This document shows positions 44,847-62,984 of a DNA stretch of 64,000 nt, piece after piece (the stretch's first letter is position 1; each line of letters opens with the position of its first letter). A program made the translations under genes and the position numbers. The stretch is taken from positions 5,874 through 69,873 of the forward strand of contig JBEKHB010000012.1 in NCBI GenBank assembly GCA_050012495.1, read 5' to 3'. The notes under the pieces are model-generated. The model was not told the origin of the DNA. It did no database searches and was given only the letters and a program-made list of their open reading frames with translations. This stretch comes from Syntrophorhabdales bacterium (GTDB taxonomy: Bacteria > Desulfobacterota > Syntrophorhabdia > Syntrophorhabdales > WCHB1-27).

Positions 44847-44923
44847 TTAGAGAGACGGCTCTTGAGGAAAATGGCCTTCGGCGGACCTGACGCTTCAAGT
44901 GCCGACGCAAAAGGACGGAGACA

Positions 44924-46638: not shown

Positions 46639-47849
46639 GCGACACCGGGAGGAGATCACGCATACTTGTGGTCAATGACGATCCGGAAACCCTCGATCTG
46701 ATCGCGGAAATTTTGCGGAAAGACGAGGCCGTCGAGGTCCGGCTCAGCCGCGATGCGCGGGAGGGAGGGGCCGTCACGTCCGAGTTTGCCCCCGACCTGA
46801 TCATGTGCAGCCTCACCGACGCCGCCGATTGGGTGCGCTTCCGTTTACGCCTGCAAGGGCATGAAGAAACCAACTCTTTTCTGCTCCTCCTTGTCTGCGA
46901 CAGGGGGGACGTCGGGATGATCGGCCGGAGCCTCGAACAGGGGGTCGATGATTATATCGAGAAGGGACTCTGCCCCCATATCCTCCTTCCCAGGATCCGA
47001 TCCCTGGTCGGTGCGAAGAGGCTTCAGGAAGAGCTGAAGGCGGAAGAGGAGAGGCTGAGTGAGAAAAACACGCTCCTCAAGAGAAACTTTGAGGAACTGA
47101 CGGCCATCCTGCTCAAGATTCTCGAGGTGCGCGTGCCGGGGGCAAGCGACCGCGCCCGTGATGCGAAGACTTGCGTCAAATTCATCGCGGAAAAACTCCA
47201 CTTTCCCCACGAAAAACGCAAACAGATTGTATTTGCCGGCCTCCTGCACGAGATAGGCAAAGTCGGCCTGCCGGATGGCGTGGCGGGCAAGCAGCACCTC
47301 AACCTGCCTGCAGAGCTCAGGTCCGCGTACCGCCAGCACCCGACCATCGGCTCGATGATCATATCCACCATGACGGGCTACAGGGAATCGGCCGAGGCAG
47401 TCCATCACCAGCTCGAAAACTATGACGGCTCGGGCTTTCCTGATGGGTTGATGGGGGAGGAGATACCCAGCCACGCGAGGATTCTCAGGGCCGTCGTATT
47501 CCAGGAGGAGCTTCGCGGGCAAGGTTGCGCAATCGACGCCATCATCGAACAGGTGCACCTCGCGATACATTCGGTCCTGGAGCAAAGGATAGCGAACCTC
47601 CTCATAGAATTCCTTCGTGAGCACAACGTAAAGCCCGAAACCAACAAGCTGAAGCTCCGCGTGGACGACCTAAAGCCTGGAATGGTGATCGCCGAAGACG
47701 TCTATGCGGCAAGCGGCGTCAAACTGCTCCCCAAGGGTGTGCAGTTGCGGGACAAAACGCTGGCCCTTCTGCTGGAGCGCAACGAGACGGACCCGGTTCT
47801 CGGCGGCATCTATATCCTCACCGACTGGTCCCTGCTTTACGGGACATGA
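46635..47849 (+). CDS. Receiver-like domain plus HD-GYP-like domain protein; both domains appear degenerate
   Basis: REC-like ILVVNDDPE...PDLIMCSL (Ser where the phospho-acceptor Asp is expected). HD-GYP-like LLHEIGKVGLPD (HE rather than HD) and HHQLENYDGSGFPDGL (GFP rather than GYP). Confidence 0.8.
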   Translation: MSDTGRRSRILVVNDDPETLDLIAEILRKDEAVEVRLSRDAREGGAVTSEFAPDLIMCSLTDAADWVRFRLRLQGHEETNSFLLLLVCDRGDVGMIGRSLEQGVDDYIEKGLCPHILLPRIRSLVGAKRLQEELKAEEERLSEKNTLLKRNFEELTAILLKILEVRVPGASDRARDAKTCVKFIAEKLHFPHEKRKQIVFAGLLHEIGKVGLPDGVAGKQHLNLPAELRSAYRQHPTIGSMIISTMTGYRESAEAVHHQLENYDGSGFPDGLMGEEIPSHARILRAVVFQEELRGQGCAIDAIIEQVHLAIHSVLEQRIANLLIEFLREHNVKPETNKLKLRVDDLKPGMVIAEDVYAASGVKLLPKGVQLRDKTLALLLERNETDPVLGGIYILTDWSLLYGT

Positions 47850-47928
47850 ATTCGCGTCTTGCCTTATCTTCTTGCCCTCCCCTGCCGATAATCTTCAAGG
47901 AGTATCACTCGCGTACAAGGAGCCGCTT

Positions 47929-50439
47929 ATGACACGAAAAGCCGAATCCGACACAAACGTGACGCCGATGCCTCTGCCCGGCCGAGAACCTGACATGGCG
48001 GGGAACGAGCGCTACCGCAAGTCTCTGCTCAACCACCTCACCCTCGGTCTGGCGAAGGACATGTATTCGGCCACCTCCAGGGACAAGTTCAACGCGGCCG
48101 TCCTCTCAGTGAGAGCGGCCATGATTAAGAACTGGATCAACACGCAGCAGCAGTACTACCTGGCCGACACGAAGCGCGTCTACTACCTCTCCCTCGAATT
48201 CCTCCTTGGCCGGCTCCTCAATTCATACCTCATCAACCTCGGCCTTGCGGAGCAGTACCGCGAGGCCGTGGGCGTCCTCGACATCTCCCTGGAGGAGGTG
48301 CTGGAGCACGAGTGGGACGCCGCCCTCGGCAACGGCGGCCTCGGAAGGCTTGCCGCCTGCTTTCTCGATTCCGTGGCGACCCTCCGGTACCCCTGCTACG
48401 GGTATGGCATACGGTACGAATACGGCATCTTCTCCCAGAGGATCAAAGAGGGCTACCAGTCCGAGGCGCCGGACAACTGGCTCCGGTACGGCAATTTCTG
48501 GGAATTCCCCCGGGCAGAGCTTCTCTACCCCGTCCGCTTCTACGGTCATGTCCAGACCCACGGCTGTCCCAACGGCCGGCCGAGGGCGGCGTGGATCGAG
48601 ACCGACGAGATACTGGCCATGGCCTATGACTATCCGGTGCCGGGATATAGAAACAACTTCGTCAATACCCTCCGTCTCTGGGCGGCGAAATCGACCCGTG
48701 ATTTCAACCTGGAGTACTTCAACAGCGGCGACTACGTGAAGGCTGTGGAGGACAAAAACAGCAGCGAAAATATCTCCAAAGTCCTCTACCCGAACGACGC
48801 TTCCCTCGCAGGCAAAGAACTCCGTCTCAAACAGCAGTACTTCTTCGTCGCGGCAACCCTGGGCGACGTGCTCCGAAGGTACAGGAAATTCCACGACACC
48901 TACGACGCCTTCCCCCAAAAGGTGGCGATCCAGTTAAACGATACCCACCCCTCCATCGCCATCCCGGAGCTGATGCGCATCTTCGTGGACGAGGAAGGCC
49001 TCGAGTGGGAAGACGCCTGGGCGATCACGACACGGACGATCGGCTATACGAACCACACCATTCTCCCCGAGGCGCTCGAAACGTGGTCGGAGGAACTGGT
49101 GGGACACCTGCTCCCCCGCCACCTCCAGATCATCCGGGAAATCGACAGGCGGTTCCTTATCCAGGTAACGCGACGGTTTCCCGGCGAGCCCGAACGGAAA
49201 GAGAAGACCGCCATTATCACCGGTTGCGGCGGAGGCGTCGTCCATATGGCGCGGCTCGCCATCGTGGGCAGCCACGCGACCAACGGCGTCTCCCGGATGC
49301 ACTCGGAGATCCTGAAGGCCGACATCTTCAACGACTTCTACCTCATGTACCCCGAGCGCTTCCATAACATCACCAACGGCATTACCTACAGGCGATGGCT
49401 CCTGGAGGCAAATCCCGGGCTTTCGGCCCTGATCACCGGGGCTATCGGCGACGGGTGGACGCACGACCTGGAGCGACTGGCCGACCTGGAGCCGTTCGCC
49501 CGGGACGACGGTTTCTGCAAGGCCTTCGAGGAGATAAAGCAGGCGAACAAGGCGAGGCTCGCCGCTTTCCTTGCGACGAACGACAAGATCACCATCAACC
49601 CGTCTTTCCTCCTCGACTGCCAGGCAAAGCGGTTCCACGAATACAAGCGGCAGCTCCTCAACGTCTTCCACGCCATTACCCTCTATAACAGGCTCGTCGA
49701 AGGGAGAGAGACGGATTCATTCACCCCGAGGACTATCCTGTTTTCCGGCAAGTCCGCACCTGGGTACCTCCTGTGTAAGCTCATCATCAAGCTGATCCAC
49801 AATGTGGCCGACGTGATCGCCGCCCATCCCCTGGTGAGGGAGAAGCTCCAGGTGGTCTTCGTGCCCAATTACGGCGTGACCCTGGCCCAGTTCATCATCC
49901 CTGCCGCGGAGCTGTCCGAGCAGATATCGACAGCCGGTTTCGAGGCCTCCGGCACCGGCAACATGAAGTTCATGCTCAACGGCGCCCTCACGATCGGCAC
50001 CCTCGACGGGGCGAACGTCGAGATCCGCGACGAGGCGGGGGAGGAGAACTTCTTTCGCTTCGGTCTCGACAGCAGCGAGGTGCAGGCCCTCCGGCCGGGC
50101 TATGACCCGAAGAAATATATCGACGAGAACGGCGAGCTGAAGCGGATCATCAGCCAGCTTGGCAACGGGTTTTTCTCCGCCGAGAACCCCTCCCTCTTTC
50201 AGCCCATCCTCGACACCCTGCAGGGCGGCGACCGTTTCTTCGTGCTCGCCGACTACGAGGGCTACATAAGCTGCCAGGAGGCCGTGTCGATTGCCTATCG
50301 GGACCGCGAGGAATGGACGAGAAAAGCGGTCATCAACGTGGCCCGGTCGGGGAAGTTCTCGAGCGACAGGGCGGTAGAGGAGTACGCGCGGCGCATCTGG
50401 GACGTGGCCCCGTTGCGTTCCGGCGAGGCGACGCAGTAA
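47929..50439 (+). CDS. glgP: Glycogen/alpha-glucan phosphorylase
   Basis: YYLSLEFLLGR, GNGGLGRLAACFLDS, EASGTGNMKFMLNGALTIGTLDGANVE (PLP-Lys motif). ATG 47929 follows AAGGAG. The track start at 47704 lies inside the upstream gene. Confidence 0.95.
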   Translation: MTRKAESDTNVTPMPLPGREPDMAGNERYRKSLLNHLTLGLAKDMYSATSRDKFNAAVLSVRAAMIKNWINTQQQYYLADTKRVYYLSLEFLLGRLLNSYLINLGLAEQYREAVGVLDISLEEVLEHEWDAALGNGGLGRLAACFLDSVATLRYPCYGYGIRYEYGIFSQRIKEGYQSEAPDNWLRYGNFWEFPRAELLYPVRFYGHVQTHGCPNGRPRAAWIETDEILAMAYDYPVPGYRNNFVNTLRLWAAKSTRDFNLEYFNSGDYVKAVEDKNSSENISKVLYPNDASLAGKELRLKQQYFFVAATLGDVLRRYRKFHDTYDAFPQKVAIQLNDTHPSIAIPELMRIFVDEEGLEWEDAWAITTRTIGYTNHTILPEALETWSEELVGHLLPRHLQIIREIDRRFLIQVTRRFPGEPERKEKTAIITGCGGGVVHMARLAIVGSHATNGVSRMHSEILKADIFNDFYLMYPERFHNITNGITYRRWLLEANPGLSALITGAIGDGWTHDLERLADLEPFARDDGFCKAFEEIKQANKARLAAFLATNDKITINPSFLLDCQAKRFHEYKRQLLNVFHAITLYNRLVEGRETDSFTPRTILFSGKSAPGYLLCKLIIKLIHNVADVIAAHPLVREKLQVVFVPNYGVTLAQFIIPAAELSEQISTAGFEASGTGNMKFMLNGALTIGTLDGANVEIRDEAGEENFFRFGLDSSEVQALRPGYDPKKYIDENGELKRIISQLGNGFFSAENPSLFQPILDTLQGGDRFFVLADYEGYISCQEAVSIAYRDREEWTRKAVINVARSGKFSSDRAVEEYARRIWDVAPLRSGEATQ

Positions 50440-50489: not shown

Positions 50490-51185
50490 TTATGCCGGCG
50501 GGTGACTGCAGAGACTCTCTGTCAGATACTTCCTCAGCTTTTCGACCCTCCCCTTATTGCTGCGGTAAAGCGGCAGAACGTTCTGATATTCCCTTACCTT
50601 GTTTATGTCTTTAAGCTCTTCCACATGAACATCTTTTTCAAGCCACTTCCTCACGTTATGAAATGCACCGATAAACAGAATACCCTTTCCCCCTTCCTGC
50701 AGCGTATCGTTTATCTGCTTCGCAATGAACTTATCCCTTCTTTCCAAAAGCGTATTTTTTGCGAGCTTATACTTCAGGGCCGCGGCAAGCTTTTGCGCCC
50801 GGTTCTTTGCCTGCGTTATCTTGAGAATCCAGGCGCGTTCCTCCTTTACGAGGCTTAAATCTTCCGTCTTGACGAGAACGGCGCCTTTCCCGATCAGTGC
50901 CGAGATGATCTGATAATTCCGGCTGCCTGTCTGAAGAACTTCCCGAACTATTGCCACGGCTGTTTCACCGCCTGCTACCATGCCGTCCTGGTATATCTTG
51001 AAACCCGGTACTTCAATGGAATCAAAATACCCGGCAATTGCGTCCCAGAAACCGAGGACGGTCTCCTCGTGCCTTTTCCAAAGTGTCTCACCGAATTCCC
51101 TCAGACCTCTTGCGGCAATGTCCTCGCCCATGGAGCCGAGGTCCGCCTCTGTGTGGATAATTGGGACGTAGAGTAACGCACGCAT
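50490..51185 (-). CDS. Hypothetical protein (231 aa), last gene of the gas-vesicle operon
   Basis: ATG follows AGGAG, 13 nt downstream of the preceding gvp gene, with the same low GC. No domain recognised. Confidence 0.6.
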   Translation of the reverse strand: MRALLYVPIIHTEADLGSMGEDIAARGLREFGETLWKRHEETVLGFWDAIAGYFDSIEVPGFKIYQDGMVAGGETAVAIVREVLQTGSRNYQIISALIGKGAVLVKTEDLSLVKEERAWILKITQAKNRAQKLAAALKYKLAKNTLLERRDKFIAKQINDTLQEGGKGILFIGAFHNVRKWLEKDVHVEELKDINKVREYQNVLPLYRSNKGRVEKLRKYLTESLCSHPPA

Positions 51186-51198
51186 CCCGGCTCCTGTC

Positions 51199-51495
51199 TT
51201 ATTTCACCCTCTCTTCCAGCCGTTCAATCCTCTTTTTCAATGCCTTTGCCTCATTCTCAATAGCGTGTCTCTTTCTGCCATTGGATAAATAGGGGTCCTG
51301 CTGCCACCAGTTAATCCCCATCTCCATCGCTTTATCGACAGATGCGATCAACAGCCTTATCTTAATGGTTAACAGTTCAATGTCTGCAATTCTTATCTGG
51401 ATGTCTCCTGCAATAACAATTCCTTTATCCAGTACTCTTTCCAGTATGTCGGCAAGATTGGTAGCCTGAATTGCATGCACCATTTGTTCGGCCAT
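51199..51495 (-). CDS. GvpA-family minor gas vesicle protein (GvpJ/GvpM/GvpS type)
   Basis: LADILERVLDKGIVIAGDIQIRIADIELLTIKIRLLIASVDKA is the GvpA/J/M core. Confidence 0.85.
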   Translation of the reverse strand: MAEQMVHAIQATNLADILERVLDKGIVIAGDIQIRIADIELLTIKIRLLIASVDKAMEMGINWWQQDPYLSNGRKRHAIENEAKALKKRIERLEERVK

Positions 51496-51506
51496 AAGAC
51501 TCTCCC

Positions 51507-52040
51507 TTATATCAGATCTCCCAAAGGACCGAGATTAAGATTCATGTCTTCATCCTTGATACCGAAGATCGCCTGGATTTCCTGCATCTTTTTCTTTACC
51601 GCTTTCAGACTTAATCCCAACTTTTGGATCTCAACGGAAGAAAGCGATCCCCTCCGCACTCTCCTGAATGCCTCCTTCTCCATAAGCTTTCTTATCAACT
51701 CGATAATGGTTAAAATGAGCTTTGCCAAACCCTGTTCAGTTTCCCTCGGGCTGTCTGCGTGTATAATCCTGGGGATGTTTTCTTCGGCCTTTTTTATCTC
51801 GTTTTGTAATTTCTCGATATAGGCGATGTCTTCTTTGGTCAATGCCTTTTCGGGGCTGCCGGGGCGCCTTCCCGATAACTCCTCAGCCTTGGCAACAGAA
51901 GTGAGTATGAGCCTCAAACCCAGAAACACCAGGTCTACATCCGCTATCCGTAGCACCATGTCGCCGTTGATAACCACTCCCTTTTCCACGACCTTGTCCA
52001 GGACATCAAACAGCGCAACCCTCTCATGTGTAGCTGTCAT
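51507..52040 (-). CDS. Fusion protein: N-terminal GvpA/J-family domain plus C-terminal GvpK domain
   Basis: N-terminus: LFDVLDKVVEKGVVINGDMVLRIADVDLVFLGLRLILTSV (GvpA/J core). C-terminus: GLAKLILTIIELIRKLMEKEAFRRVRRGSL...IQAIFGI (GvpK signature). ATG 52040 overlaps the upstream stop (ATGA). Confidence 0.8.
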   Translation of the reverse strand: MTATHERVALFDVLDKVVEKGVVINGDMVLRIADVDLVFLGLRLILTSVAKAEELSGRRPGSPEKALTKEDIAYIEKLQNEIKKAEENIPRIIHADSPRETEQGLAKLILTIIELIRKLMEKEAFRRVRRGSLSSVEIQKLGLSLKAVKKKMQEIQAIFGIKDEDMNLNLGPLGDLI

Positions 52041-52876
52041 GCCGTCTCCTGCGGCCCGTAGGAATCGGTAAAATTGAAGGGCGGCCACGGGCCGCTGTAT
52101 TCGAGGTGAAGCCCCTTTGTGCGAAGCTCCCCGGCGGTGCCGTCAACGGTCTTCTTGAATGCATCGAGCTTATCTGCATGGACTAAAAAGGCTGCATTGA
52201 AAACCATCCTCTCTGTTTTGCCCGTCATCTCTCTGTCAAGAATCCTTGTCCTTACGGATTCTGTTGCCTCTTCACCCAGTTTTCCGAAGAGCTTTTCCGA
52301 AGCGGCGTCCAATTCTTTGTCTGCCTCATGACGAACGGCCTCTTTCAGCTCTTCTTCCATAAAGTAGGCCATGCCCTCGGGCATTGAGGCAATTTCCTGC
52401 TCTTTCAACCTTATTTCCGCATTATTTTCCTTAACCGTCAGCTCAAATCTTTCTTCATCCATAAGATATACCTTCACATTCCATTCCTGTTTCCCTTGAA
52501 TCTTATGCAACAACCCGCTCATCTTTGCATGGTTCCTGTCAAGGGTTTCTTTCAGTCCTGCCTCGTCGTTAAAAATGGTGCCGAACCTCATGGGGATCAC
52601 GCTGACAAGCCCATCAATCCCCCCCATGGCCTCTTCGATAACGTCTTCGTGGATGAGAACCTTTTCCTTGATCCAGTCAAGGTCTCCCCGGGCCTTTTTC
52701 TGAATTTCTTCGGAGGTGAATTTCACCAGGGAAACTCTGCTGACAACCGCCTCGATCTCGCCCTGGACGATGGTGAAAATTCCCCTTTCTCCCTCAATGT
52801 CTCCCGTACGAAACGCTGAAGGCTCTTCAGTTTTTTCCCGCACACAATAAAGATACAATCCCTCCATACCCTTCAC
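52037..52876 (-). CDS. GvpF/GvpL-family gas vesicle protein (paralogue 4)
   Basis: LYLYCVREK...IEAVVSRV...HEDVIEEAM...YSGPWPPFNF are family hallmarks. Confidence 0.9.
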   Translation of the reverse strand: MKGMEGLYLYCVREKTEEPSAFRTGDIEGERGIFTIVQGEIEAVVSRVSLVKFTSEEIQKKARGDLDWIKEKVLIHEDVIEEAMGGIDGLVSVIPMRFGTIFNDEAGLKETLDRNHAKMSGLLHKIQGKQEWNVKVYLMDEERFELTVKENNAEIRLKEQEIASMPEGMAYFMEEELKEAVRHEADKELDAASEKLFGKLGEEATESVRTRILDREMTGKTERMVFNAAFLVHADKLDAFKKTVDGTAGELRTKGLHLEYSGPWPPFNFTDSYGPQETA

Positions 52877-53139
52877 GCCTGCGATTGGTGGTTTGCAATC
52901 TTCTTTTCGTATGACTGAACCTCCAGGTTTTCATCAACCCTCACCTTATAGATGTTCAGATCCTTCACCTTCGTCGGCAGCCCGCAAGATTTGATGAGTG
53001 CGCTCTCTTCATATACCTCGACCTCTTCCTCCCACCCTTCGGGCGTTCTTGTGATCTTTACCACCTTCGCATCCTCTGCTGAGAGAATACTTTTAAAGAA
53101 CCCCTTCGTCGCCTGGGTAACTTCTGCAATATTTGCCAT
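52873..53139 (-). CDS. gvpO: Gas vesicle protein GvpO
   Basis: VVKITRTPEGWEEEVEVYEE...NIYKVRVDENLEVQSYEKK matches the GvpO pattern (GW..vEvvE ... YeV.ld..g.v.sY.r). AGGAGG RBS. Confidence 0.75.
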   Translation of the reverse strand: MANIAEVTQATKGFFKSILSAEDAKVVKITRTPEGWEEEVEVYEESALIKSCGLPTKVKDLNIYKVRVDENLEVQSYEKKIANHQSQA

Positions 53140-53168
53140 GTATCGCCTCCTATAGTGTTCTTTTCCGC

Positions 53169-53405
53169 TTACCCCTCTTCTCCTTCCGCGTACATCGCAT
53201 GCAACCGTTCGAGAAGCGCCTTTTCCTGCCTCGTGTAGGTCTCTTCATCTATCTCATCCAGCTCGAACCGCAATTGCAATTCCATAAGCCGTTCCTTGAC
53301 AAGCCCCTCGTCGGACATCTCGTGCTGAGCCATATCGTTAACCTTTTCGCTCAGCCAGATAATGCCTCTCAATGGTGAAAGAATTATGTCATCGATGAGG
53401 AACAT
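53169..53405 (-). CDS. gvpG: Gas vesicle protein GvpG
   Basis: MFLIDDIILSPLRGIIWLSEKVNDMAQHE...RLMELQLRFELDEIDEETYTRQEKALLERL is the typical GvpG sequence. Confidence 0.85.
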   Translation of the reverse strand: MFLIDDIILSPLRGIIWLSEKVNDMAQHEMSDEGLVKERLMELQLRFELDEIDEETYTRQEKALLERLHAMYAEGEEG

Positions 53406-53451
53406 CGTCTCTTTCTTTTTCGGCGTTCAGATCCACGCGCTTTCGTTCCTG

Positions 53452-53481
53452 CAGCATGCAATCGGTACACGCCGCATGCTG
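53452..53481 (-). other. Intercistronic hairpin between the GvpF/L gene and gvpG
   Basis: CAGCATGC (53452-53459) pairs with GCATGCTG (53474-53481) around a 14-nt loop. Confidence 0.6.
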
Positions 53482-53489
53482 GCAGCCAT

Positions 53490-54254
53490 TCATCCTCCCA
53501 TGTTTATCACCAGGTTCACAAAATTGAACGGCGGCAGGGTTCCCACATATTTAAACCTCACTTTGTCGTTATACCTATCTGCAAGCCCCTGAACTTCCCT
53601 GTCAAACTCCGCCTCTTTCTCTTGCGCTACCAGAAAAGCGGCGTTCATAATCATCAGCTCGCCATAGGTAGTGTTTATCCTGGCCTGTTCGCAAAGGGGC
53701 GATAATCTTCGTAATGCATCATCCTTATAGAAGTCCCTTTCCTTTTGGAGTGCTGCTTCAACCATCCTGCCTATCTCCATCCTCTGGTAATATGATTTTT
53801 CAGGGAGCAACGGTATAATCTGCTCTTTCAGGGCCTTTATATCATCATTTTTCTCGAGAATTTCCTTATACAGCACGTGTTCCTGGAACAGCATCTTCAC
53901 GCCGAGCTCTTTCTTGCCGTGCATGGTTTTTAATAACTCGATGAATTTGCGGTGCTCTCGCTCTAATATCAGTCTTACCGTTTCCACATTTTCAGCAATT
54001 GTCGCAAACCTGACCGGCAGCACCGTATGGGTTTTCATTACCTCTTCAATGACCCGCTCATGAGAAATGAGATACTCCCGGGCAACAGGATATTTTTTGA
54101 CAGGCGAATTGCTCACCACAGCCCCGATATCCCGGAAGGGTACGGTATATACCGCGTCACCCCTTCCACCAATGCCGACGGCGCCGAACGACAGAGGTTC
54201 CTTTGACTCATTTATGCAATATATGTATACCCCGTCTTCCAAAGTCGCTCCCAT
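53490..54254 (-). CDS. GvpF/GvpL-family gas vesicle protein (paralogue 3)
   Basis: VYIYCINES...IGAVVSNS...HERVIEEVM...YVGTLPPFNF. ATG 54254 lies 9 nt after GGAGAGG. The track start, GTG 54260, is the alternative. Confidence 0.9.
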   Translation of the reverse strand: MGATLEDGVYIYCINESKEPLSFGAVGIGGRGDAVYTVPFRDIGAVVSNSPVKKYPVAREYLISHERVIEEVMKTHTVLPVRFATIAENVETVRLILEREHRKFIELLKTMHGKKELGVKMLFQEHVLYKEILEKNDDIKALKEQIIPLLPEKSYYQRMEIGRMVEAALQKERDFYKDDALRRLSPLCEQARINTTYGELMIMNAAFLVAQEKEAEFDREVQGLADRYNDKVRFKYVGTLPPFNFVNLVINMGG

Positions 54255-54260
54255 AAACAC

Positions 54261-55031
54261 TCACCTCTCCCACTCTTCCTGATAAATGGTGATATTCACA
54301 AAGTTATAGGGGGGCCAGGGTCCTGCGTACAAAAACCATATTCTTTCTTTGTAGGCGTCGCTAACCTCCTCCATGACATTGTCAAATTCTTTCTCCCTCC
54401 CTTTGCTCACCAAAAATGAGCCATTCATGAACATCCCGTCGCCAATGGTAGTGTTCAGCTTATAATCGAATGCCGATGTCTTTAATGCAGCAACAATCCT
54501 TTCGGCGTCTTCCGCCTTTTTGTGCTTCAGTGCAGCCTCGACAAGTTTGCCCAGTTCTATTTTTGCCTGAATATTCTCCCGCTGCACGTCCCCTTTCGGC
54601 GTTCTCCTTATTTTTTTGATCTCTTTGCTCTCCTCTGCAATCTCCCTGAAGATAATGTCCATATCTTTCCACAGCCCCTTCACGCCAAGCTCCACCTTGT
54701 GATCCATGTCCCTCAGAACATTCTTGAATTCCCTGTACCTTTTGAATAACAGGCTCCTTATCTCATCGGCACTCGAGGCAATGGTACAGAACCTCACCGG
54801 CAACACAGTATGCTCCTTCATCACCTCTTCAATAACCTTTTCGTGAGCCAGGATGTTGTCCCGGTTCACCACAAGCTTCGTTAAAGGGTGAGCGCTGATT
54901 ACCATTGCAAGGTCATCGATACCGATAGTGCCCACCTCGTCGCCCCTGCTCCCGATGCCGATAGGGCCAAATGTTCTGTCTTGTTTTGCGTTGATGATGC
55001 AGTATATATATTTTCCTTCACGATCCATCAT
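54261..55031 (-). CDS. GvpF/GvpL-family gas vesicle protein (paralogue 2)
   Basis: KYIYCIINAK...LAMVISAH...HEKVIEEVM...YAGPWPPYNF. ATG 55031 overlaps the upstream stop (ATGA). The track start at 55106 is inside the upstream gene. Confidence 0.9.
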   Translation of the reverse strand: MMDREGKYIYCIINAKQDRTFGPIGIGSRGDEVGTIGIDDLAMVISAHPLTKLVVNRDNILAHEKVIEEVMKEHTVLPVRFCTIASSADEIRSLLFKRYREFKNVLRDMDHKVELGVKGLWKDMDIIFREIAEESKEIKKIRRTPKGDVQRENIQAKIELGKLVEAALKHKKAEDAERIVAALKTSAFDYKLNTTIGDGMFMNGSFLVSKGREKEFDNVMEEVSDAYKERIWFLYAGPWPPYNFVNITIYQEEWER

Positions 55032-56053
55032 TGTTCCTTTACCGTGACGATTATCGAATTTTCTGCAAAGTCTTCTTTTTTGAAAGAACACGCATCGTGT
55101 TGACAATATGCTGAAAGCAGCCTGTATGCATTGGTGATTTCAATATATTCCGTTTCTGTCTCGCCATTTTGCCTGTCGGACTGCTTATCGGGATGATACA
55201 CAGAGGCATATTTCCTGTAGGCCTTTTTTATCTCGTCTTTCGTTGCAAAGGCGTTCAGAGCAAGTTTTTCCTTTGCCCGCTCAATTTCGTCGTACTGCAA
55301 TTGTTCTATCTCAAGCACATAAAAGTTATATGGTGGAAGTGGACCGACGCACTTGAAATGGACCTTTCCGCCAAAACTGCCGCTTAATTCATCCAGCCTT
55401 TCTTCAAAACGGATGTGCCTGGGCTTGTCGATAAAGAAGGCTGCATTCATGATTGTCGCGTCATTCAGCATCGTATATTCTTTTATGCTCCGGCACAGGT
55501 CTTCCAATGAGTCCTTTATAGTGAGGGCGTATTCATGTTTTTTCTTATCCAGACAACTTTTAATGAGCATGCCTGCTTTCATTTGATCATCGACCGTGAT
55601 GCCCGCCTTCTTGTTGAAAAGGACCTGTTTTACTGCCCTTACCTCTTCTTCTTCGGATACCTCTTGTATGACCGCATGAAGATCGACCCAGGTGGCGACG
55701 ACATCAAGCTCTATCCTGCCTTCGATCTTTGCAAAAACCTCTTTAAACACGTGGTATCCCTTCATCAGGGCCAGCATCACCTCATCTTCACCGAGCACAT
55801 ACGTGCCCAGCCTCGCAGGGATGACGGTAAACGCCTTCATCAACTTTTCCATCACCACCTGATGCTCGATGAGGCGCCTTGCCGCAGCGTCGCCCGGCAG
55901 CTTTCCATAGTCAATTATCTCGGAATCACCCACTGCCGCAGAAACATCCTTATAAGGGACGGTGTAAATGCCGTGTGAAGTGAGCATAGTTGAACCCGCC
56001 GCATGGGATTCATTATTGATCACGCCATATATGCACTTACCTTTATCGTTCAT
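55028..56053 (-). CDS. GvpF/GvpL-family domain fused to a C-terminal DnaJ-type J domain
   Basis: Residues 1-245 form a GvpF/L fold (CIYGVINNE...HQVVMEKLM...[10 protein letters not shown]). Residues about 255-316, [33 protein letters not shown]...[14 protein letters not shown], form a J domain with its HPD at nt 55187-55195. Confidence 0.9.
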
Positions 56054-58260
56054 GCGTCACCCTGTCCCGCGGAAATAGATTCTTTCTGCTTTTGCACCAA
56101 TCGCAATGCCTCCTCGAAATGCCTCTTCGATATAGTAAGTTGCGCGCGCGCGTTGGGTTTCGCGTTTTGGGTGTGGTTTACATATTCCCTTATGGTCAAC
56201 ATAGACGCTTTCCGGCAAATAAATTCTATGTCCGATCCTGCCAGGCCGACGGTCTCTTTTGCGAGCGCCCGCAAATCCACATCCTTGCCAAGAGGTTTGT
56301 TCTTCGTATGGATCCCAAATATGGATAAACGTGTGTCTTCATCAGGAAGGGGCAGCTCGATGACAAGATCGAATCTTCCACCTCTCAGGAGCGCCGGGTC
56401 AATCATATCGAGCCGGTTGGTAGCGGCCAGCACCACCACTCCCTTGAGTTCTTCAATACCGTCCATTTCGGCCAGGAACTGGCTCACAACCCGTTCCGTC
56501 ACGCCTGACTCGGCAATCCCCGAACCCCTTCTCGGCACTACGGCGTCGATCTCGTCAAAAAATATGATAGCCGGGGAAGCCTGTTTTGCTGTTTTGAAGA
56601 CTTCACGGATGCCCTTCTCACTTTCACCCACAAATTTTGACATGAGACTCGGCCCCTTTATGGAGATAAAATTGACTTTCGTCTCGCTTGCAACCGCTTT
56701 TGCAAGTAAGGTTTTTCCCGTACCCGGCGGTCCATGAAGGAGAATCCCCTTGGGCGGGTGTGTGCCGGCAGCTCTAAAGACATCAGCGTACTTAATGGGC
56801 CATTCTACCGCCTCCTTCAATTCCTGTTTGATCTCTTCGAGGCCGCCCACGTCATCCCATCGCACATCGGGCACCTCGACAAACACCTCCCGTATGGCAG
56901 AGGGTTCAACCTCTTTCATGGCATCCAGGAAATCGTCCATAGTCACTTCCAGCTTGAGGAGCGTCTCATAAGGGATTTCATCCACGTCGAAATCAATCCG
57001 CGGTAAAATCTTCCGGAGTGCAGACATGGCTGCCTCCCTTGCCAGCGCCTCCAGGTCCGCACCAACGAAGCCATGGGTAATCTCGGCCAATTTTTCCAGA
57101 TCGACCCCGTCGTGCGCTTCACCGCTTCCCTGACCGGGTTCTCCTGAGAGGGGCATACCCCTCGTATGGATCTGCAATATATGCAGTCTTCCGTTTCTGT
57201 CCGGAATGGGGATTGAAATCTCCCTGTCGAACCTCCCCGGTCTCCTTAGAGCCGGGTCGAGGGTATTGGGAATATTTGTTGCCCCGATGACAATTACCTG
57301 TCCCCGCGACTGCAATCCGTCCAGGAGCGACAGGAGTTGGGCGACAACACGCCGCTCAACCTGTTTTTCTCCGCCCATGTCTTCCCTTTTCGGCGCAATG
57401 GCATCAATTTCATCAATAAAGATTATCGAAGGGGTATGCTTCTGGGCATCATCAAATATGGACCTGAGACGCGCTTCGCTTTCTCCGTAAAATTTACCCA
57501 TGATTTCCGGGCCGCTGATACTTGTGAAGTACGCCTCGGTCTCGTTCGCCACGGACCGGGCGATCAATGTCTTCCCTGTGCCGGGAGGCCCATAGAGCAG
57601 TACACCTTTAGGCGGGTCAATTCCGAGTCTCTCGAATATCTGCGGGTATTTCAAAGGCAGCTCGATCATCTCCCTGATTCTTTGAATCTGATACCCCAGT
57701 CCTCCGATGTCTTCATAGGAAATCTTCGCGATTTTCGGCTCACCTGCCTCCCTCGATTCTATTTCTATTTGTGTTGCCGGATTTATCGCCACCACGCCGT
57801 CGGGGGTAGTAGTGAGAACCTTGAAATCGCTTGACCGTGAGCCAAAAAGCGTCACCCTTACCCTGTCTCCCGTGATTACAGGCAGACCCTCGATCAGCGT
57901 GCCGATATACCTGGCATCCCTATCTTTTTGAGGCAGGCTTGAAAGGGTTAGGGGGGAAAGCTTTACCCTTGCTGCACGCTTGTGATCGACCTTCAGAACC
58001 TTTACCTTCTCGTCTATGCCGACCTTGGCATTCTCCCTCGTTATGCCGTCCATCTGTATGATCTTTTTTCCTCTCTCTTCAACATAACAGGGCATCAGCT
58101 TCACCGGGGTCTTTCTTTTCCCTTCAATCTCCACGATATCGCCGACATCCAATTCGAGCAGCTTCATGTCCTCGGGGTCAATCCGGACAATGGCCCTCCC
58201 CACGTCCTTCGGCAACGCCTCTTTCACTTTGAAAGCCGGGGGCGACTCTTCATCTTTCAT
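56050..58260 (-). CDS. Cdc48/VCP/p97-type double-ring AAA+ ATPase
   Basis: N-terminal Cdc48-like domain ([29 protein letters not shown]). Two AAA modules with [14 protein letters not shown] and [14 protein letters not shown], plus Walker B IIFIDEID and IIFFDEID. Length 736 aa. Confidence 0.95.
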
Positions 58261-58278
58261 TGTTGCCGTTCCTCCGTT

Positions 58279-59217
58279 TTATTGAAACAGCAATTCCTTA
58301 AAGTCATTCAAGGCATCGATACCCTTCACTTCCCGCGGGCGCAGCGGGACAAGTGTTATCCGGGTAGTGCCCATTTGTTCTCTCAAGTAATTGATGTAGT
58401 CTTCCTCTCCTTTCCTTTTTTCTTTGCAAAATTCACAATGGTCATTCAACGGCACTACATTGTTGACCACCAATTGTTTTATTGTTATCCCGTATTTATT
58501 CAATTCAGCGATCATCTTCTCTGCCTCCCGGACAGCCATGTATTCCGGTATTGTCACCACGATGAATTCACACCTTTTAAGGTCTTTAAAGAGGCTGCGT
58601 ATCCTGGCGACGGTTCTTTTCATCTCCACAAGAAAATCATCGCCTTCGTCGGGTTTATAGGCACCGCCGAGGGTTGTCAAAACATAGCGGTATTTCCATC
58701 TCATCTTTGCCATGACCCTGATCCATTCATCGAGCATGCCCGGCAGCGTTAAAAGCCTCAGGGCATGACCCGTGGGCGCCGTATCGACAACGACCTTATC
58801 AAATCTCCCCTCTTCAATCAGGTCTGTTATGGTCTTTAACCCCATAACTTCATCTAAACCCGGGATCGGAAGTGACAGGACCGATTCGATATCTTCCGAA
58901 TCCAGATAGGTTGACGTGTCGATAATCTTTTTTATCTGTTCTTCGTACCGCACCTTGAAGGCTGAAAAAGTTTTTTTTGCGCTTATCTCAATCGCACTCA
59001 GATTTGTTACGCCTTTAATGTCCTGAACTCCATCTCCGATCTTCTGTCCCAGACTGTCCGACAGGGAATGGGCCGGATCGATAGAGATAATTAACGTGTG
59101 GCATGTTTCCGACAAATGCAGACCGGCACTTACCGCGCACGTTGTTTTTCCAACGCCGCCCTTGCCGCCGAAGAGAATCAGTCTCAAAGGGGCATCCCTC
59201 AGTCCGGTCAATCCCAT
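58279..59217 (-). CDS. ArsA/Get3 (TRC40)-family P-loop ATPase, single-domain
   Basis: Deviant Walker A FGGKGGVGKTT and family signature VVDTAPTGHALRLL. Length 312 aa. Confidence 0.9.
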   Translation of the reverse strand: MGLTGLRDAPLRLILFGGKGGVGKTTCAVSAGLHLSETCHTLIISIDPAHSLSDSLGQKIGDGVQDIKGVTNLSAIEISAKKTFSAFKVRYEEQIKKIIDTSTYLDSEDIESVLSLPIPGLDEVMGLKTITDLIEEGRFDKVVVDTAPTGHALRLLTLPGMLDEWIRVMAKMRWKYRYVLTTLGGAYKPDEGDDFLVEMKRTVARIRSLFKDLKRCEFIVVTIPEYMAVREAEKMIAELNKYGITIKQLVVNNVVPLNDHCEFCKEKRKGEEDYINYLREQMGTTRITLVPLRPREVKGIDALNDFKELLFQ

Positions 59218-59229
59218 TGAGAATCCCCT

Positions 59230-59766
59230 TCATTTCTTTATCGTAATCTCAAGTATGCCGTTCTTAAAAGAAGAGGCAAGGGTCTCGCTTTTCCCCTTTG
59301 CGGGAAGGAGAAGCTCCTTGCGATATTTTTTGTCTCCGCTTTTCGCGGAAATATTGAGTATGTCCCCCAACAGGTCCATCTTTATGTCGTTCTCATTCAC
59401 CCCGGGCATTTCCGCGTAGACACGGATTTCATCTTTTTCGTCAAAAACATCGGTAATCGGCTCCCTTTCTTCTTCGACCTTTGCTCCGCGAGGGGTTTTT
59501 TTAATATTGCCGAAATGTTCGACAACCGGTTTTCCTCCTGTGGCCGTCTTTATGGAAAACCCGAAGACGCCTTTCATGCCCTCTTTCAGGTCGCTTAAGT
59601 CTATGGCGCCTTCTTTCTTTATTTCACCGCCTGCTTTTTCCATCTCGGATACGAGGTCCACCAGGTTTTGAACGCCTTTAAACAGGTCTCCCATCCCCAG
59701 GTCTCCCATTCCAAGCTCAATCTTGATTGAATCGTCGCGCTTTTTGCTGCGTTTTTTTTCCGCCAT
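59230..59766 (-). CDS. Small heat-shock protein (Hsp20/alpha-crystallin), GvpH-like context
   Basis: Alpha-crystallin domain ITDVFDEKDEIRVYAEMPGVNENDIKMDL...SSFKNGILEITIKK. ATG 59766 follows GGGGGGA. The N-terminal region is Lys/Gly-rich. Confidence 0.85.
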   Translation of the reverse strand: MAEKKRSKKRDDSIKIELGMGDLGMGDLFKGVQNLVDLVSEMEKAGGEIKKEGAIDLSDLKEGMKGVFGFSIKTATGGKPVVEHFGNIKKTPRGAKVEEEREPITDVFDEKDEIRVYAEMPGVNENDIKMDLLGDILNISAKSGDKKYRKELLLPAKGKSETLASSFKNGILEITIKK

Positions 59767-59799
59767 TTCTCCCCCCCTTACATGTTCCGAACGCCGCAT

Positions 59800-60105
59800 T
59801 CAATACCTGATCGGCATTGTCCTCAAAGGGTTCGTCTTTGTGCACGCGGCGGTCTTTATCGCCCCGGCTTCCTGTATCTCCCCTTGTAATCCGGCAATCA
59901 GTTTATTTACGTCGCGCAACAAGCGACCGGTTATTTCCCGTTTCTTTTCCAGCGCAGCAACTTCTTTTTCCAGCCTGTCCTTCTCCCTTTTCAGCGAGTA
60001 CAGGTCAAGATAAGGGGACCTCTGAACCTTCGGGACCGACCGTGCGCCGATGGAATGCATGCTTCTCACGTTCCTGATTGTTGTGATCTCGTGCAAAGCT
60101 TTCAT
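59800..60105 (-). CDS. Hypothetical coiled-coil protein (101 aa) between gvpN and the sHsp gene
   Basis: GAGGAGG RBS. A heptad-like segment LYSLKREKDRLEKEVAALEKKREITGRLLRDVNKLIAGLQGEIQEA. No family recognised. Confidence 0.6.
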   Translation of the reverse strand: MKALHEITTIRNVRSMHSIGARSVPKVQRSPYLDLYSLKREKDRLEKEVAALEKKREITGRLLRDVNKLIAGLQGEIQEAGAIKTAACTKTNPLRTMPIRY

Positions 60106-60148
60106 GCGGTCATCCTCCTCGCGATGACTTGATCAGGGCGAATTGGTG

Positions 60149-61066
60149 TTAGTTCATATGTGTGGCCACCAGGCCCTCGACAATCTCCTTCACCCTGTTT
60201 TGATTTGTCTTAGAGCCTACCCTGCTCGTCACGGAAGCCAGTATGTCCTGACACATCCGGCTGAAAGCCCCGTTTGAACGGGATGGTGAAATGTTCCGGA
60301 CCTTCGCTGCCTTTGCAATCATTATGCAGGCACGAATTGTCGGTGCGAATTCGCACTTGCCCGATTCTCTCAGATCCCTCACGATCCGCACTATCTTCTC
60401 TACATCTTTTTTGGGAAGTCTGGATTTTGCGCGGGTAATGGCCACCTCCGTATCATAGTCAAAATGGTCTAAATCCATCGTTACCATTCTGTCCCTCAAG
60501 GCATCCTGACTTCTGTGCACTCCTGCATATTCCTCAGGATTACTTGTAAATATCGCGGTAAAATGCGGGTGCACCTTAAGGTATGGCCCCTCTCCCCCCC
60601 TTTCCGAGGGCAAATCCATAATCCGTTCCTGCAGAATAGACAAAAGGATATTATTCGCCTCCGGACGCGACCGTGTAAACTCATCGTAGATGAGGGTGAA
60701 TCCGGCCCTGCATGCCACGGTCAGACGGTTGTCAACCCATCTCTTGACCATGTCTTCTTCCGTCTTGAGAACCCTTGAGACAAAACGGTCCACCACTTTT
60801 CTCATCCTGTAGCCATATTCACCACCTACAAGATTGGATGTGGTCAACTCCTCATCTCCATGAATTAGGACAACCGGTCTCCCTATCTTGTGTGCGACAT
60901 GCATGGCGAGGGTAGTTTTACCGGTGCCTGAAACCCCTCTGAAATGCACCGGAAAACCCGCCTTGATGTAAGAAATCGCTCTGCCGGCGGTATCCTTTAT
61001 GTAGTTCGTTTCCACAAAATCATGCAAAGCAGATGGTTCTAAGAGCGTTGCGTTCTCCTCAATCAT
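60149..61066 (-). CDS. gvpN: Gas vesicle protein GvpN (MoxR-like AAA+ ATPase)
   Basis: FRGVSGTGKTTLAMHVAHKIGRPVVLIHGDEELTTSNLVG and LIYDEFTRSRPEANN match GvpN. Length 305 aa. Confidence 0.9.
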   Translation of the reverse strand: MIEENATLLEPSALHDFVETNYIKDTAGRAISYIKAGFPVHFRGVSGTGKTTLAMHVAHKIGRPVVLIHGDEELTTSNLVGGEYGYRMRKVVDRFVSRVLKTEEDMVKRWVDNRLTVACRAGFTLIYDEFTRSRPEANNILLSILQERIMDLPSERGGEGPYLKVHPHFTAIFTSNPEEYAGVHRSQDALRDRMVTMDLDHFDYDTEVAITRAKSRLPKKDVEKIVRIVRDLRESGKCEFAPTIRACIMIAKAAKVRNISPSRSNGAFSRMCQDILASVTSRVGSKTNQNRVKEIVEGLVATHMN

Positions 61067-61167
61067 TCGGGTTTTCCTCCCAAAATATTTTTCATGCCAC
61101 TGCAGATCCTTTTCCCTTCCCTTAAATCCGCCCTCACTCCCCCTTCTCTTCTCTTGAAATCATCCTT

Positions 61168-61197
61168 AAAAAAACTGTCGGCTCCGCACCTTGAGCC
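61168..61197 (-). terminator. Weak intrinsic-terminator-like hairpin plus T-run after the GvpC-like gene
   Basis: On the minus strand: GGCTC-aaggtgcg-GAGCC, then gacaGTTTTTTTA. The stem is only 5 bp. Confidence 0.3.
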
Positions 61198-61199
61198 CG

Positions 61200-62144
61200 T
61201 TAAACCCGATAATAAAGACCGCCCTCTTTTCTGATCTTGCCTTCATCCAGCAGTTTTTTTGCCAGTACACCCAATCTCAATCTGGGCACACCGAAAACCG
61301 GCTCCATGTCGCCAACCCTTACCCCGTTGTGCTGCTGATTGATGTATCCCAGAACCTTTTCTTCAATATCAACGTCCTGATGTGGCTTTTCTGCGTGCGG
61401 CCTCTCTTCTTCGATTGCCTCCCGGACCGCAGCAACCTTATTGTGGATTTCGACGGATGGCATTGCGGTCTCCACTTTTAAACCGGTGAGCGTTCCTTCC
61501 CAGAAGTGTCCCGCCTGCGTCATATCCGTATGGTATTCCTGCAAAAGTTTCCCGACCCCACGTGCTATATCGTTTGCATACGCAGCCAGGCTTTTTCTCA
61601 AGGCATCGCTCATCTCGCCATGAGATGCGTCAAATTCTTTCAGTTTATTCTTGACATAGCTTTCGATGTTTTTTACATCCCTTTCACGTCTGCTCTTACG
61701 CTCCGCCGACATCTCACCCCGTGTTCTTCTGAACTTGTTCACCATGGCGCCGGCATCCTTTGTGAGTGATGCGACAAACTCCGACAGGTCCTTTGCCTGT
61801 TCGCTGCCCATCTGACGGTGTTCTTTTAAAAATTGATCCAGCATCTTTTTGGTGTTTGTCGTGAGATTATGCGAAAACTCCGACAGATCCTTTGCTTGTT
61901 CGCTGCCCATTTTGTGATGCTTTTTGCGAAAGTCTTTCAGCATATCCTCCACGCTTTTGGATAGGCCACCCTGGAAATCCTGTAGGTCTTTGCGCTGCTT
62001 ACGACCCATGGCATGCCGTTCCTCCGCAAAATCCTCTACAGTCTTTTTTGTGTCAAGCAATAGATCTCCAAGGGCTTTTACTCTCACATTGCGCGAAGTA
62101 ACGATCTGTTCCGCCAAGTCTTTCATGCTGTGTGCCATAGCCAT
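61200..62144 (-). CDS. GvpC-like repeat protein (five consecutive 33-residue repeats) with a C-terminal winged-helix-like domain
   Basis: The M-G/S anchors at residues 46, 79, 112, 145 and 178 are spaced exactly 33 aa apart (HKMGSEQAKDLSEFSHNLTTNTKKMLDQFLKEH / RQMGSEQAKDLSEFVASLTKDAGAMVNKFRRTR ...). The 99-bp DNA periodicity is visible around 61750-61920. The C-terminus is EEKVLGYINQQHNGVRVGDMEPVFGVPRLRLGVLAKKLLDEGKIRKEGGLYYRV. Its position between gvpA and gvpN matches cyanobacterial gvpC. Confidence 0.7.
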   Translation of the reverse strand: MAMAHSMKDLAEQIVTSRNVRVKALGDLLLDTKKTVEDFAEERHAMGRKQRKDLQDFQGGLSKSVEDMLKDFRKKHHKMGSEQAKDLSEFSHNLTTNTKKMLDQFLKEHRQMGSEQAKDLSEFVASLTKDAGAMVNKFRRTRGEMSAERKSRRERDVKNIESYVKNKLKEFDASHGEMSDALRKSLAAYANDIARGVGKLLQEYHTDMTQAGHFWEGTLTGLKVETAMPSVEIHNKVAAVREAIEEERPHAEKPHQDVDIEEKVLGYINQQHNGVRVGDMEPVFGVPRLRLGVLAKKLLDEGKIRKEGGLYYRV

Positions 62145-62159
62145 GGCTGCCTCCTTTTT

Positions 62160-62867
62160 CTATGGATCACGCTGTGTGTCGGTTTGCTGGTTCCCGCCTT
62201 TTTTTCTGAATGTACTGAGCATCTTTTGCACGCCTTCTTTCCTTTCCCGCTGCTGCGCTGCCCTTTCCCTGGATTGAGCCTCAAACTGCTTGAGCATCGT
62301 TTTTAAATCTCTTATCCTGAGCTCCCTCCCTTTGGAAAGAAGTTCCCCAAGGGAGCGAGATAACTGACCTTGTTCTTTTTGAAGTATCTTCAGTGTGGCG
62401 GCAAGTTCCGCCTTTCTCTCTTCCTGCTTTTTAAGAATATCCGTGAGCACCTCATGGAAGTCATTGATTCTGCCGATATTGTCCGTGTTCAGGCCATCCT
62501 TGAATGTTCCCAGATTTTCCTTGAGCCGCCTTGCCATTTCTCTCTGCTCAGTGAGATAGTTGTGAAGCAGTTTCCTCACCGCTCTCTCTCTGTCATCTTG
62601 AGAGAGGAGAATGGTATTCATCATCGCGTCAAAATCCTTTTTCCTGAGAGATTCGTTCCTCGCAAGGGTCTCGCGAAGCCGAACGTGTAATGCCTCCTTT
62701 TCCTCCTTTCCATGTGACATTGATTCCTGAAATTCACCAAGAACCATTTGCGTGTTGTCAATGATGAGGCTCATGCTCTGAAGCTTTTCCTCATAGGAAG
62801 AAATAATTCCTTCAACTACATGAGTCGCATTTACGCTGTCTGTCATTGGGGCCCTTGGGTCCGGCAT
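62160..62867 (-). CDS. Hypothetical charged coiled-coil protein (235 aa) directly downstream of gvpA
   Basis: Long helical, charged sequence with recurring (K/R)D(F/L)..M(M/L)..(I/F) motifs (KKDFDAMMNTIL, INDFHEVLTDIL, IRDLKTMLKQF) that resemble motifs in the neighbouring GvpC-like protein. Confidence 0.65.
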   Translation of the reverse strand: MPDPRAPMTDSVNATHVVEGIISSYEEKLQSMSLIIDNTQMVLGEFQESMSHGKEEKEALHVRLRETLARNESLRKKDFDAMMNTILLSQDDRERAVRKLLHNYLTEQREMARRLKENLGTFKDGLNTDNIGRINDFHEVLTDILKKQEERKAELAATLKILQKEQGQLSRSLGELLSKGRELRIRDLKTMLKQFEAQSRERAAQQRERKEGVQKMLSTFRKKGGNQQTDTQRDP

Positions 62868-62870
62868 TAA

Positions 62871-62950: not shown

Positions 62951-62984
62951 ATCCGCTTTTGCTCGGCTGAGCCTGGTAAAGCCT

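Follow-up and report, generated by a model that had tools for sequence, protein, structure and literature searches.

Why would a gas-vesicle protein carry a J domain, the module through which co-chaperones engage Hsp70? The question is raised by a 64,000-nucleotide stretch of DNA from a Syntrophorhabdales bacterium (GenBank assembly GCA_050012495.1, contig JBEKHB010000012.1, positions 5,874 to 69,873 of the forward strand), which we call the window. Its gas-vesicle (gvp) operon includes a gene whose 341-amino-acid product joins a GvpF/L-type domain to a C-terminal J domain. An initial annotation, made from the letters of the sequence, proposed this fusion and suggested that it brings DnaK to the gas-vesicle assembly machinery. 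We find that the fusion is genuine, strictly conserved and embedded in a chaperone-rich operon. From these observations, we think it probable that the protein is a J-domain protein of class C (type III) whose specific task is gas-vesicle biogenesis, and which would hold a client while recruiting DnaK to it.

A GvpF-type domain and a J domain in one protein

The fusion is encoded by a single open reading frame (ORF) on the minus strand, with its ATG at 56053 and its TGA at 55028-55030. Both ends overlap a neighbouring gene: the ATG overlaps the stop codon of the upstream Cdc48-family gene (GCATGA), and the TGA overlaps the ATG of a downstream GvpF/L paralogue (CAATGATGG). ATGA-type overlaps at both ends are the pattern typical of a translationally coupled operon, so the fusion ORF is an integral operon member.

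Only two Pfam domains were detected in the protein at E <= 1. GvpL_GvpF (PF06386) covers residues 8-245 with an E-value of 6.4e-44 and a score of 151 bits (cut-off 23.6), and takes in positions 4-244 of the 245-position profile. DnaJ (PF00226) covers residues 264-314 with an E-value of 6.7e-12 and a score of 45.8 bits (gathering cut-off 27.8), matching positions 6-54 of a profile of 63. A sequence search of the PDB gave the same division: residues 56-245 matched the GvpF structures 6l5d and 4qsg at ~1e-12, and residues 262-316 matched ~35 J domains, including DNAJC5 (7e-7) and DNAJB8. E. coli DnaJ was matched at ~2e-4, including its chain in the DnaK-DnaJ complex 5nro. These two-domain matches far exceed what chance would produce.

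We made an AlphaFold2 model of the protein from a 68-sequence alignment (pLDDT 89.6, pTM 0.80) and compared it with solved structures using Foldseek. The GvpF-type domain aligns with Anabaena GvpF (6l5d) at a TM-score of 0.81, with an rmsd of 3.4 A over 244 columns and an E-value of 3e-14. The C-terminal part superimposes on solved J domains with an rmsd of 0.8-2.0 A over ~55 residues (probability 1.00). Sequence, predicted structure and conservation thus bear out what the initial annotation had read from the ORF: a complete N-terminal GvpF/L fold followed by a genuine J domain with helices I-III, both in one reading frame, and an HPD tripeptide that is read directly from the sequence at the position it had given. 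The translation agrees letter for letter with the quoted segments, and the quoted end of the GvpF/L part falls at residues 233-244.

In the model, helix I of the J domain spans residues 254-263, helix II 272-286 and helix III 296-316. Helices II and III form an antiparallel hairpin with a basic face and a hydrophobic core, and the HPD tripeptide (H287-P288-D289) lies in the loop between them. Aligned with E. coli DnaJ, the domain corresponds to DnaJ residues 8-58, HPD falls on HPD, Y279 on Y25 and Y303 on F47. By our own alignment, the basic residues K276, K277, R280 and K281 of helix II correspond to R22, K23, K26 and R27 of DnaJ.

The canonical fourth J-domain helix was not found: the Pfam match ends at position 54 of 63, and what follows helix III in the model is a 25-residue tail, predicted as a strand (321-323), a helix (326-332) and a second strand (334-340), with pLDDT ~88-90 up to residue 340. 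Conserved positions in the tail region include Y316, C317, F324, F329, N332 and V336; in the predicted structure helix IV is replaced by a strand-helix-strand tail specific to this family. Helices I-III, which bear the elements that contact Hsp70, are intact.

A J domain uses its HPD tripeptide and helix II to bind ATP-bound Hsp70 and trigger hydrolysis. The HPD is required specifically for stimulation of the Hsp70 ATPase, and pseudo-J domains typically lose it. Here it is retained in all 112 full-length homologues, in nearly every member of a 252-sequence set (H and D in 248 each, P in 250) and in 139 of 143 full-length representatives clustered at 50% identity. The exceptions among these representatives number four: one has QPD, one has a degenerate loop, and two have C-termini that look frameshifted. 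The QPD protein (P0197) and the one with the degenerate loop 'YQSN' (P0180) may be natural loss-of-function variants.

The basic face of helix II is also maintained in the 252 sequences, with lysine or arginine at K276 in 79%, K277 in 65%, R280 in 69% and K281 in 44%, and K290, directly after the HPD, is mostly lysine or arginine across homologues. Core positions of the domain are conserved in the same set (L264, L266, I275, Y279, A283, F/Y303, A309, Y310 and L313). The mean frequency of the most common residue is 0.51 in the J region and 0.51 in the GvpF region, i.e., the two parts are equally conserved. We considered a degenerate or pseudo-J domain as the principal interpretation and rejected it because the HPD and the basic face of helix II are conserved.

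J domains are also found fused to specific modules (class C), which bring Hsp70 to a particular client or site. The fusion protein has the make-up of this class: a J domain with no G/F region, no zinc finger and no DnaJ C-terminal domains, and its tail contains no G/F region either. It therefore differs from bacterial DnaJ (class A Hsp40), which has a G/F region, a zinc finger and C-terminal client-binding domains, and unlike DnaJ it is not a general chaperone. Its sequence identifies it as a class C J-protein with what appears to be a new targeting module.

Conservation of the fusion and its operon

Public assemblies contain the identical 341-amino-acid protein in 78 indexed blocks. It is encoded in the same gene order on three contigs of 45-80 kb, which come from separate ENA and JGI samples. 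A homology search returned 265 matches, and more than 250 homologues, down to 36-39% identity, keep the fusion architecture. Among the 120 listed of these 265 matches, PF00226 and PF06386, the domain pair that the initial annotation had suggested looking for, occur together in all except two truncated fragments, down to 39% identity.

Two broader searches extended this picture. A profile search covered 1.84 billion representatives at 50% identity; ~140 of its best 150 matches were full-length through the J region, and 664 proteins scored at E <= 1e-30. A genome scan, using one genome per species, gave 166 candidates, of which the best 80 were analysed as genome loci. All 80 encode the fusion with its HPD, and they span about 20 phyla, mostly uncultured anaerobes. 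The carriers among them are Syntrophorhabdaceae, Syntrophus, Nitrospirota/Thermodesulfovibrionales, Planctomycetota (Pirellulales, Sedimentisphaerales and Phycisphaerales), Omnitrophota, Elusimicrobiota, Ignavibacteriales, Cloacimonadota, Latescibacterota, Atribacterota, Aminicenantales, Actinomycetota, Dehalococcoidales, Kiritimatiellota, Zixibacteria and others. The closest of the 80 is a metagenome-assembled genome (MAG) labelled 'uncultured delta proteobacterium', with 82% identity over the C-terminal part.

A fused ORF can also arise artificially, if a GvpF/L gene and an independent small J-protein gene are run together through chimeric assembly, a frameshift or an overlooked stop codon. 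The only hint of this kind is the pair of frameshift-like C-termini in P0188 and P0240; nothing else was found. An artefact would have to recur in 78 assembly blocks, on contigs of up to 80 kb and in both ENA and JGI data, as well as in each listed full-length homologue and at 80 of 80 genome loci, all of which have the single-ORF architecture. The junction between the two domains is itself conserved, with A260 invariant and E248 and L264 each at 90% or more. The initial annotation had named an assembly error as a possible source of the fusion. Recovery of the identical protein from 78 independent assembly blocks, together with an architecture shared by many phyla, lets us exclude an assembly or gene-calling artefact, the chance of which is negligible.

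The fusion gene belongs to a 17-gene gvp operon on the minus strand (~50490-63191; Table 1). Genes for gvpA, gvpN, gvpG, gvpO, gvpJ/K and a GvpA-like protein lie on its strand within 8 kb. Alongside these, the operon encodes a small heat-shock protein (sHsp), a Get3/ArsA-family ATPase and a Cdc48-family ATPase. The assignment of the last is also supported by NCBIfam TIGR01243 (950 bits against a cut-off of 803).

Table 1. Genes of the gvp operon and parts of the fusion protein, in order of transcription (positions are those of the window; L001-L007 are related loci)
Feature	Position	Strand	Evidence
gvpA	62985-63191	-	Pfam; synteny L001-L007
Coiled-coil protein	62160-62867	-	Synteny L001-L007
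Repeat protein, 314 aa	61200-62144	-	Synteny L001-L007
GvpN-like AAA_5	60149-61066	-	Pfam
101-aa protein	59800-60105	-	Synteny L001-L007
Small heat-shock protein, HSP20/alpha-crystallin domain	59230-59799	-	Pfam HSP20 2.7e-07
Single-domain Get3/TRC40/ArsA-family ATPase, 312 aa	58279-59217	-	Pfam ArsA_ATPase 6.6e-73; TIGR00345 253 bits against cut-off 135
Cdc48-family double-ring AAA+ ATPase, 736 aa	56050-58260	-	Pfam CDC48_N, CDC48_2, two AAA
GvpF/L-J fusion gene, 341 aa + TGA	55028-56053	-	ORF list, sequence, Pfam, public gene calls
Fusion: GvpF-type domain, residues 1-251	55301-56053	-	Pfam, PDB sequence matches, Foldseek
Fusion: J domain, residues 254-316	55106-55294	-	Pfam DnaJ, AlphaFold secondary structure, Foldseek, conservation
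Fusion: HPD tripeptide, H287-P288-D289	55187-55195	-	Direct sequence reading; loop between helices II and III
Fusion: C-terminal tail, residues 317-341	55031-55105	-	AlphaFold secondary structure, alignment, conserved positions
Second GvpF/L paralogue, GvpF-like, without J domain	54261-55031	-	Pfam GvpL_GvpF 4.6e-61; gene call in L001
Third GvpF/L paralogue, GvpF-like	53490-54260	-	Pfam 1.2e-65; NCBIfam GvpF 118, GvpL 63 bits
GvpG	53169-53405	-	Pfam
GvpO	52873-53139	-	Pfam
Fourth GvpF/L paralogue, GvpL-like	52037-52876	-	Pfam 6.1e-56; NCBIfam GvpL 99.6, GvpF 62.6 bits
GvpJ-like+GvpK fusion	51507-52088	-	Pfam
GvpA-like gene	51199-51495	-	Pfam
Conserved 231-aa gene, last of operon	50490-51185	-	Synteny L001-L007

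Gene order is the same in L001-L007 and is kept around homologues of 52%, 42%, 41% and 39% identity. The Cdc48 gene lies directly upstream of the fusion in 53 of the 59 genome loci with enough upstream DNA, and within ~1.3 kb in three more. Of 49 related loci, 48 encode HSP20 and 42 encode ArsA.

Many relatives have a further component. Small proteins with five or six CxxCxGxG repeats, one or, often, two per cluster, occur in 25 of the 37 loci that have 8 kb of upstream DNA. In locus L084, two of them match the central zinc-finger domain of DnaJ (PF00684), with scores of 51 and 48 bits (cut-off 32.7). Taken with the J domain on GvpF/L, these proteins look like a 'split DnaJ'. Examples lie at L007:3188-3559, L005:4738-5061, and L084:2278-2640 and 4395-5138. 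We also looked for such a partner in the window's own cluster, and no CxxCxGxG-repeat ORF was found in the 64 kb, common as these proteins are in relatives.

A dedicated Hsp70 within the gvp cluster was also looked for, with a negative result: Hsp70 signature motifs are absent from all six frames of the window and from within 10 kb on either side in every one of 84 related loci. The Hsp70 partner would therefore have to be the housekeeping DnaK.

Proposed role and its alternatives

What GvpF and GvpL do is a long-standing open point in gas-vesicle biology, and interaction screens go only as far as to suggest that GvpF 'chaperones' GvpA (PMC11445434). That work, on model clusters, proposes that GvpF, acting much like a chaperone, is the primary and transient partner of the hydrophobic shell protein GvpA2, and that GvpL scaffolds GvpJ/K/S (PMC11445434). 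Expression of shell protein is also proteotoxic in heterologous hosts (PMC12848028).

In the role that we favour, the GvpF-type domain would be the targeting or client-binding module, which binds GvpA or its relatives GvpJ/M/S, or joins a nucleation complex of accessory proteins. The GvpA family is proposed as client from the published GvpF-GvpA interaction data, and the DnaK interaction from established J-domain biology. The J domain would dock on ATP-bound housekeeping DnaK, encoded elsewhere in the genome, and its HPD loop and the basic face of helix II would trigger ATP hydrolysis, causing DnaK to clamp onto the subunit held adjacent to it. Clamping may keep the aggregation-prone shell protein soluble and deliver assembly-competent subunits. 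The fusion protein would probably act together with the operon's sHsp, Get3/ArsA and Cdc48-type unfoldase, and the presence of these three in the operon and of zinc-finger proteins in relatives supports a chaperone role.

Several observations weigh against this proposal. All carriers among the best 80 genomes are MAGs or single-amplified genomes, and that their clusters make gas vesicles is a prediction. No Hsp70 gene lies in the window or in the 84 related loci, and canonical helix IV is missing from the J domain, with the tail in its place. The fused copy is also the most divergent of the operon's four F/L copies (151 Pfam bits, compared with 191-222 for the others), which makes it uncertain that GvpA binding can be transferred to it from cyanobacterial, haloarchaeal or Bacillus GvpF.

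Two of these observations also speak for a J-like domain that acts without Hsp70, e.g., as a structural or oligomerisation module, or as an adaptor to the Cdc48 N-domain or to another Gvp protein. Such a role fits the conserved tail in place of helix IV and the lack of an Hsp70 gene nearby, and the pTM of 0.80 suggests that in the model the J module may be packed against the body of the protein. However, the HPD is ~99% conserved over sequences that are only 36-40% identical, it is accompanied by the basic helix II face, and the variants that lack it (P0197 and P0180) are isolated exceptions. Since the HPD of known J domains specifically serves Hsp70 ATPase stimulation, we consider an Hsp70-independent role very improbable.

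The leading alternative is that the J domain recruits DnaK for disassembly or remodelling rather than for subunit delivery. This could take an auxilin-like form, in which a GvpF/L-containing accessory complex is released from the growing vesicle and recycled. Alternatively, DnaK, the Cdc48-type unfoldase and the sHsp could jointly pull GvpA out of shells that are mis-assembled or have collapsed, making up an sHsp / Hsp70-J / AAA+ disaggregation triad dedicated to gas-vesicle protein. The genomic setting is what recommends this idea: the Cdc48-family gene sits immediately upstream of the fusion gene and is translationally coupled to it, its adjacency holds in most related loci, as given above, and an sHsp gene is present in almost all of them. 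The Cdc48 homologue also has aromatic pore loops in both rings (KFYGESE in D1 and KFVGESE in D2), which fits an active unfoldase.

Disassembly nevertheless seems unlikely to us as the main role. The fusion with its HPD persists where these partners are lacking: L084 has no Cdc48, ArsA or HSP20 gene within 9 kb upstream (Pfam, gene by gene), and L044 and L053 are further examples of clusters with no Cdc48, ArsA or sHsp gene nearby. An obligatory coupling of the fusion to Cdc48 is thereby weakened, and the J domain is not strictly dependent on Cdc48. Direct coupling of a J domain or Hsp70 to Cdc48-type ATPases is not known in bacteria, and ClpB works through its M-domain, which is absent from the Cdc48 homologue. 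Active gas-vesicle disassembly has not been described. A wider scheme would unite delivery and disassembly in a self-contained proteostasis line for the shell, in which GvpF-J couples DnaK to Cdc48, aided by the sHsp, Get3/ArsA and often zinc-finger holdases, and which both assembles GvpA and actively recycles it from collapsed or surplus vesicles. It would operate like the DnaK-ClpB bi-chaperone, and if true it would bring to light the first system for actively disassembling or recycling gas vesicles as well as a bacterial Hsp70-Cdc48 partnership; we regard it as speculative and rather doubtful.

Set against known class C proteins, the proposed role as a J-domain protein for gas-vesicle biogenesis follows a familiar logic. 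Auxilin/GAK (clathrin lattice), HscB (IscU), DjlA and Mycoplasma TopJ (terminal organelle assembly) likewise combine a J domain with a targeting module. As in auxilin and DjlA, the J domain here is C-terminal, and TopJ and DjlA give weak NCBIfam matches in the J region. There is no homology to any of these proteins beyond the J domain, and what differs is that the targeting module is a gas-vesicle protein and that helix IV is replaced. J-domain fusions are common as a principle; the gas-vesicle targeting module appears to be new.

Compared with GvpF of Anabaena PCC 7120 (6L5D) and Microcystis aeruginosa (4QSG), the fusion protein shares the fold (TM 0.74-0.81) at an identity of only 19-23%. 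With the studied GvpF and GvpL proteins of cyanobacteria, Bacillus megaterium and Halobacterium, it shares the Pfam family and the gvp-operon setting (gvpG, gvpO, gvpJ/K and a gvpA-like gene). It alone bears a ~90-residue C-terminal extension (J domain and tail), and it is one of four paralogues.

Parts of the surrounding cluster have been seen before. Castillo and Saier (2010; PMC2963123) reported an ArsA homologue and Hsp20 alongside gvpF/L, G, J, K and N genes. The ArsA of those clusters is a two-domain protein of ~600 amino acids, and neither a J domain nor Cdc48 is mentioned (PMC2963123). The ArsA protein described here is, by contrast, half that size, with a single domain (312 amino acids), and is accompanied by a Cdc48-family ATPase and the J fusion. 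Gas-vesicle genes have also been noted, with no detail, in single-cell genomes of Latescibacteria (PMC4454575).

The initial annotation had surmised that the fusion was undescribed, and our searches agree. No description of a GvpF/L-J fusion was found in the full-text literature that we searched, which did not cover subscription journals, and the main text of a survey of ~280,000 J-domain proteins does not mention Gvp. Homologues are labelled in databases as 'GvpL/GvpF family gas vesicle protein', 'DnaJ-domain-containing protein 1' or 'hypothetical protein', and NCBIfam has no model for a GvpF/L-J fusion. As far as we searched, then, the architecture is auto-annotated in databases but not described or interpreted in the literature.

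A strongly conserved natural fusion of GvpF with a J domain allows a Rosetta-stone argument, namely that proteins of the GvpF/L family work in a chaperone pathway, as adaptors for a client or a site. It points to a link, so far undescribed, between gas-vesicle building and the cell's main chaperone, and gives a concrete, testable handle on GvpF/L function. The fusion also defines a large, unstudied class of chaperone-rich gas-vesicle clusters, with their own sHsp, Get3/ArsA and Cdc48 and often with DnaJ zinc-finger proteins, which spans Desulfobacterota, Nitrospirota, Planctomycetota, Omnitrophota, Ignavibacteriales, Cloacimonadota and other phyla. Proteotoxic stress caused by the shell protein limits the expression of gas vesicles in heterologous hosts, e.g., as acoustic reporter genes (PMC12848028), so gas-vesicle clusters with built-in chaperone modules could be of practical use.

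Paralogues, other operon genes and flanking regions

By NCBIfam score, the fused paralogue appears GvpF-like rather than GvpL-like (69.8 bits for GvpF against a cut-off of 350, and 39.5 bits for GvpL against a cut-off of 200). Both scores are far below their cut-offs, so it is assigned to neither the GvpF nor the GvpL equivalog of NCBIfam. Scores for the other paralogues are given in Table 1.

The Cdc48-family ATPase ends in ...AGQGDA, without an HbYX-like motif. In the literature searched, no Cdc48-type unfoldase turned up in bacterial gas-vesicle clusters.

Two domains share one ORF at 51507-52088, a Gas_vesicle (GvpJ/A-like) domain and a GvpK domain. They are fused in L001-L005 and encoded by separate genes in L006 and L007. 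Near the other end of the operon, the 314-amino-acid repeat protein has no family match. It contains ~5 degenerate repeats of ~35-37 residues (e.g., MGSEQAKDLSEF, which occurs twice) and a winged-helix-like C-terminal segment, and it is conserved in most related clusters. Its gene takes up the position in which one might expect a GvpC analogue, an external scaffolding protein. The last gene of the operon, which encodes 231 amino acids, has a weak sub-threshold match to TraB/PrgY/GumN and occupies the same position in most related loci.

An Rfam scan of the whole window gave no match, and promoter and terminator scans of 50-64 kb gave the same counts as shuffled sequences. On one side of the operon (43725-50439) are an IclR-type regulator, MotA/MotB-like genes, a response regulator with an HD domain (HD_5) and glycogen phosphorylase. 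On the other side, a DUF169 protein is encoded upstream of gvpA (63610-63996). The distant relatives L004 and L005 have sigma-54 activator and response-regulator genes upstream of gvpA instead.

The L084 cluster, which keeps the J fusion with its HPD, encodes two zinc-finger proteins, two GvpN-like ATPases and a TPR protein. The second of its GvpN-like AAA_5 ATPases and the TPR-repeat protein lie upstream of the GvpF-J gene, at L084:6287-7928.

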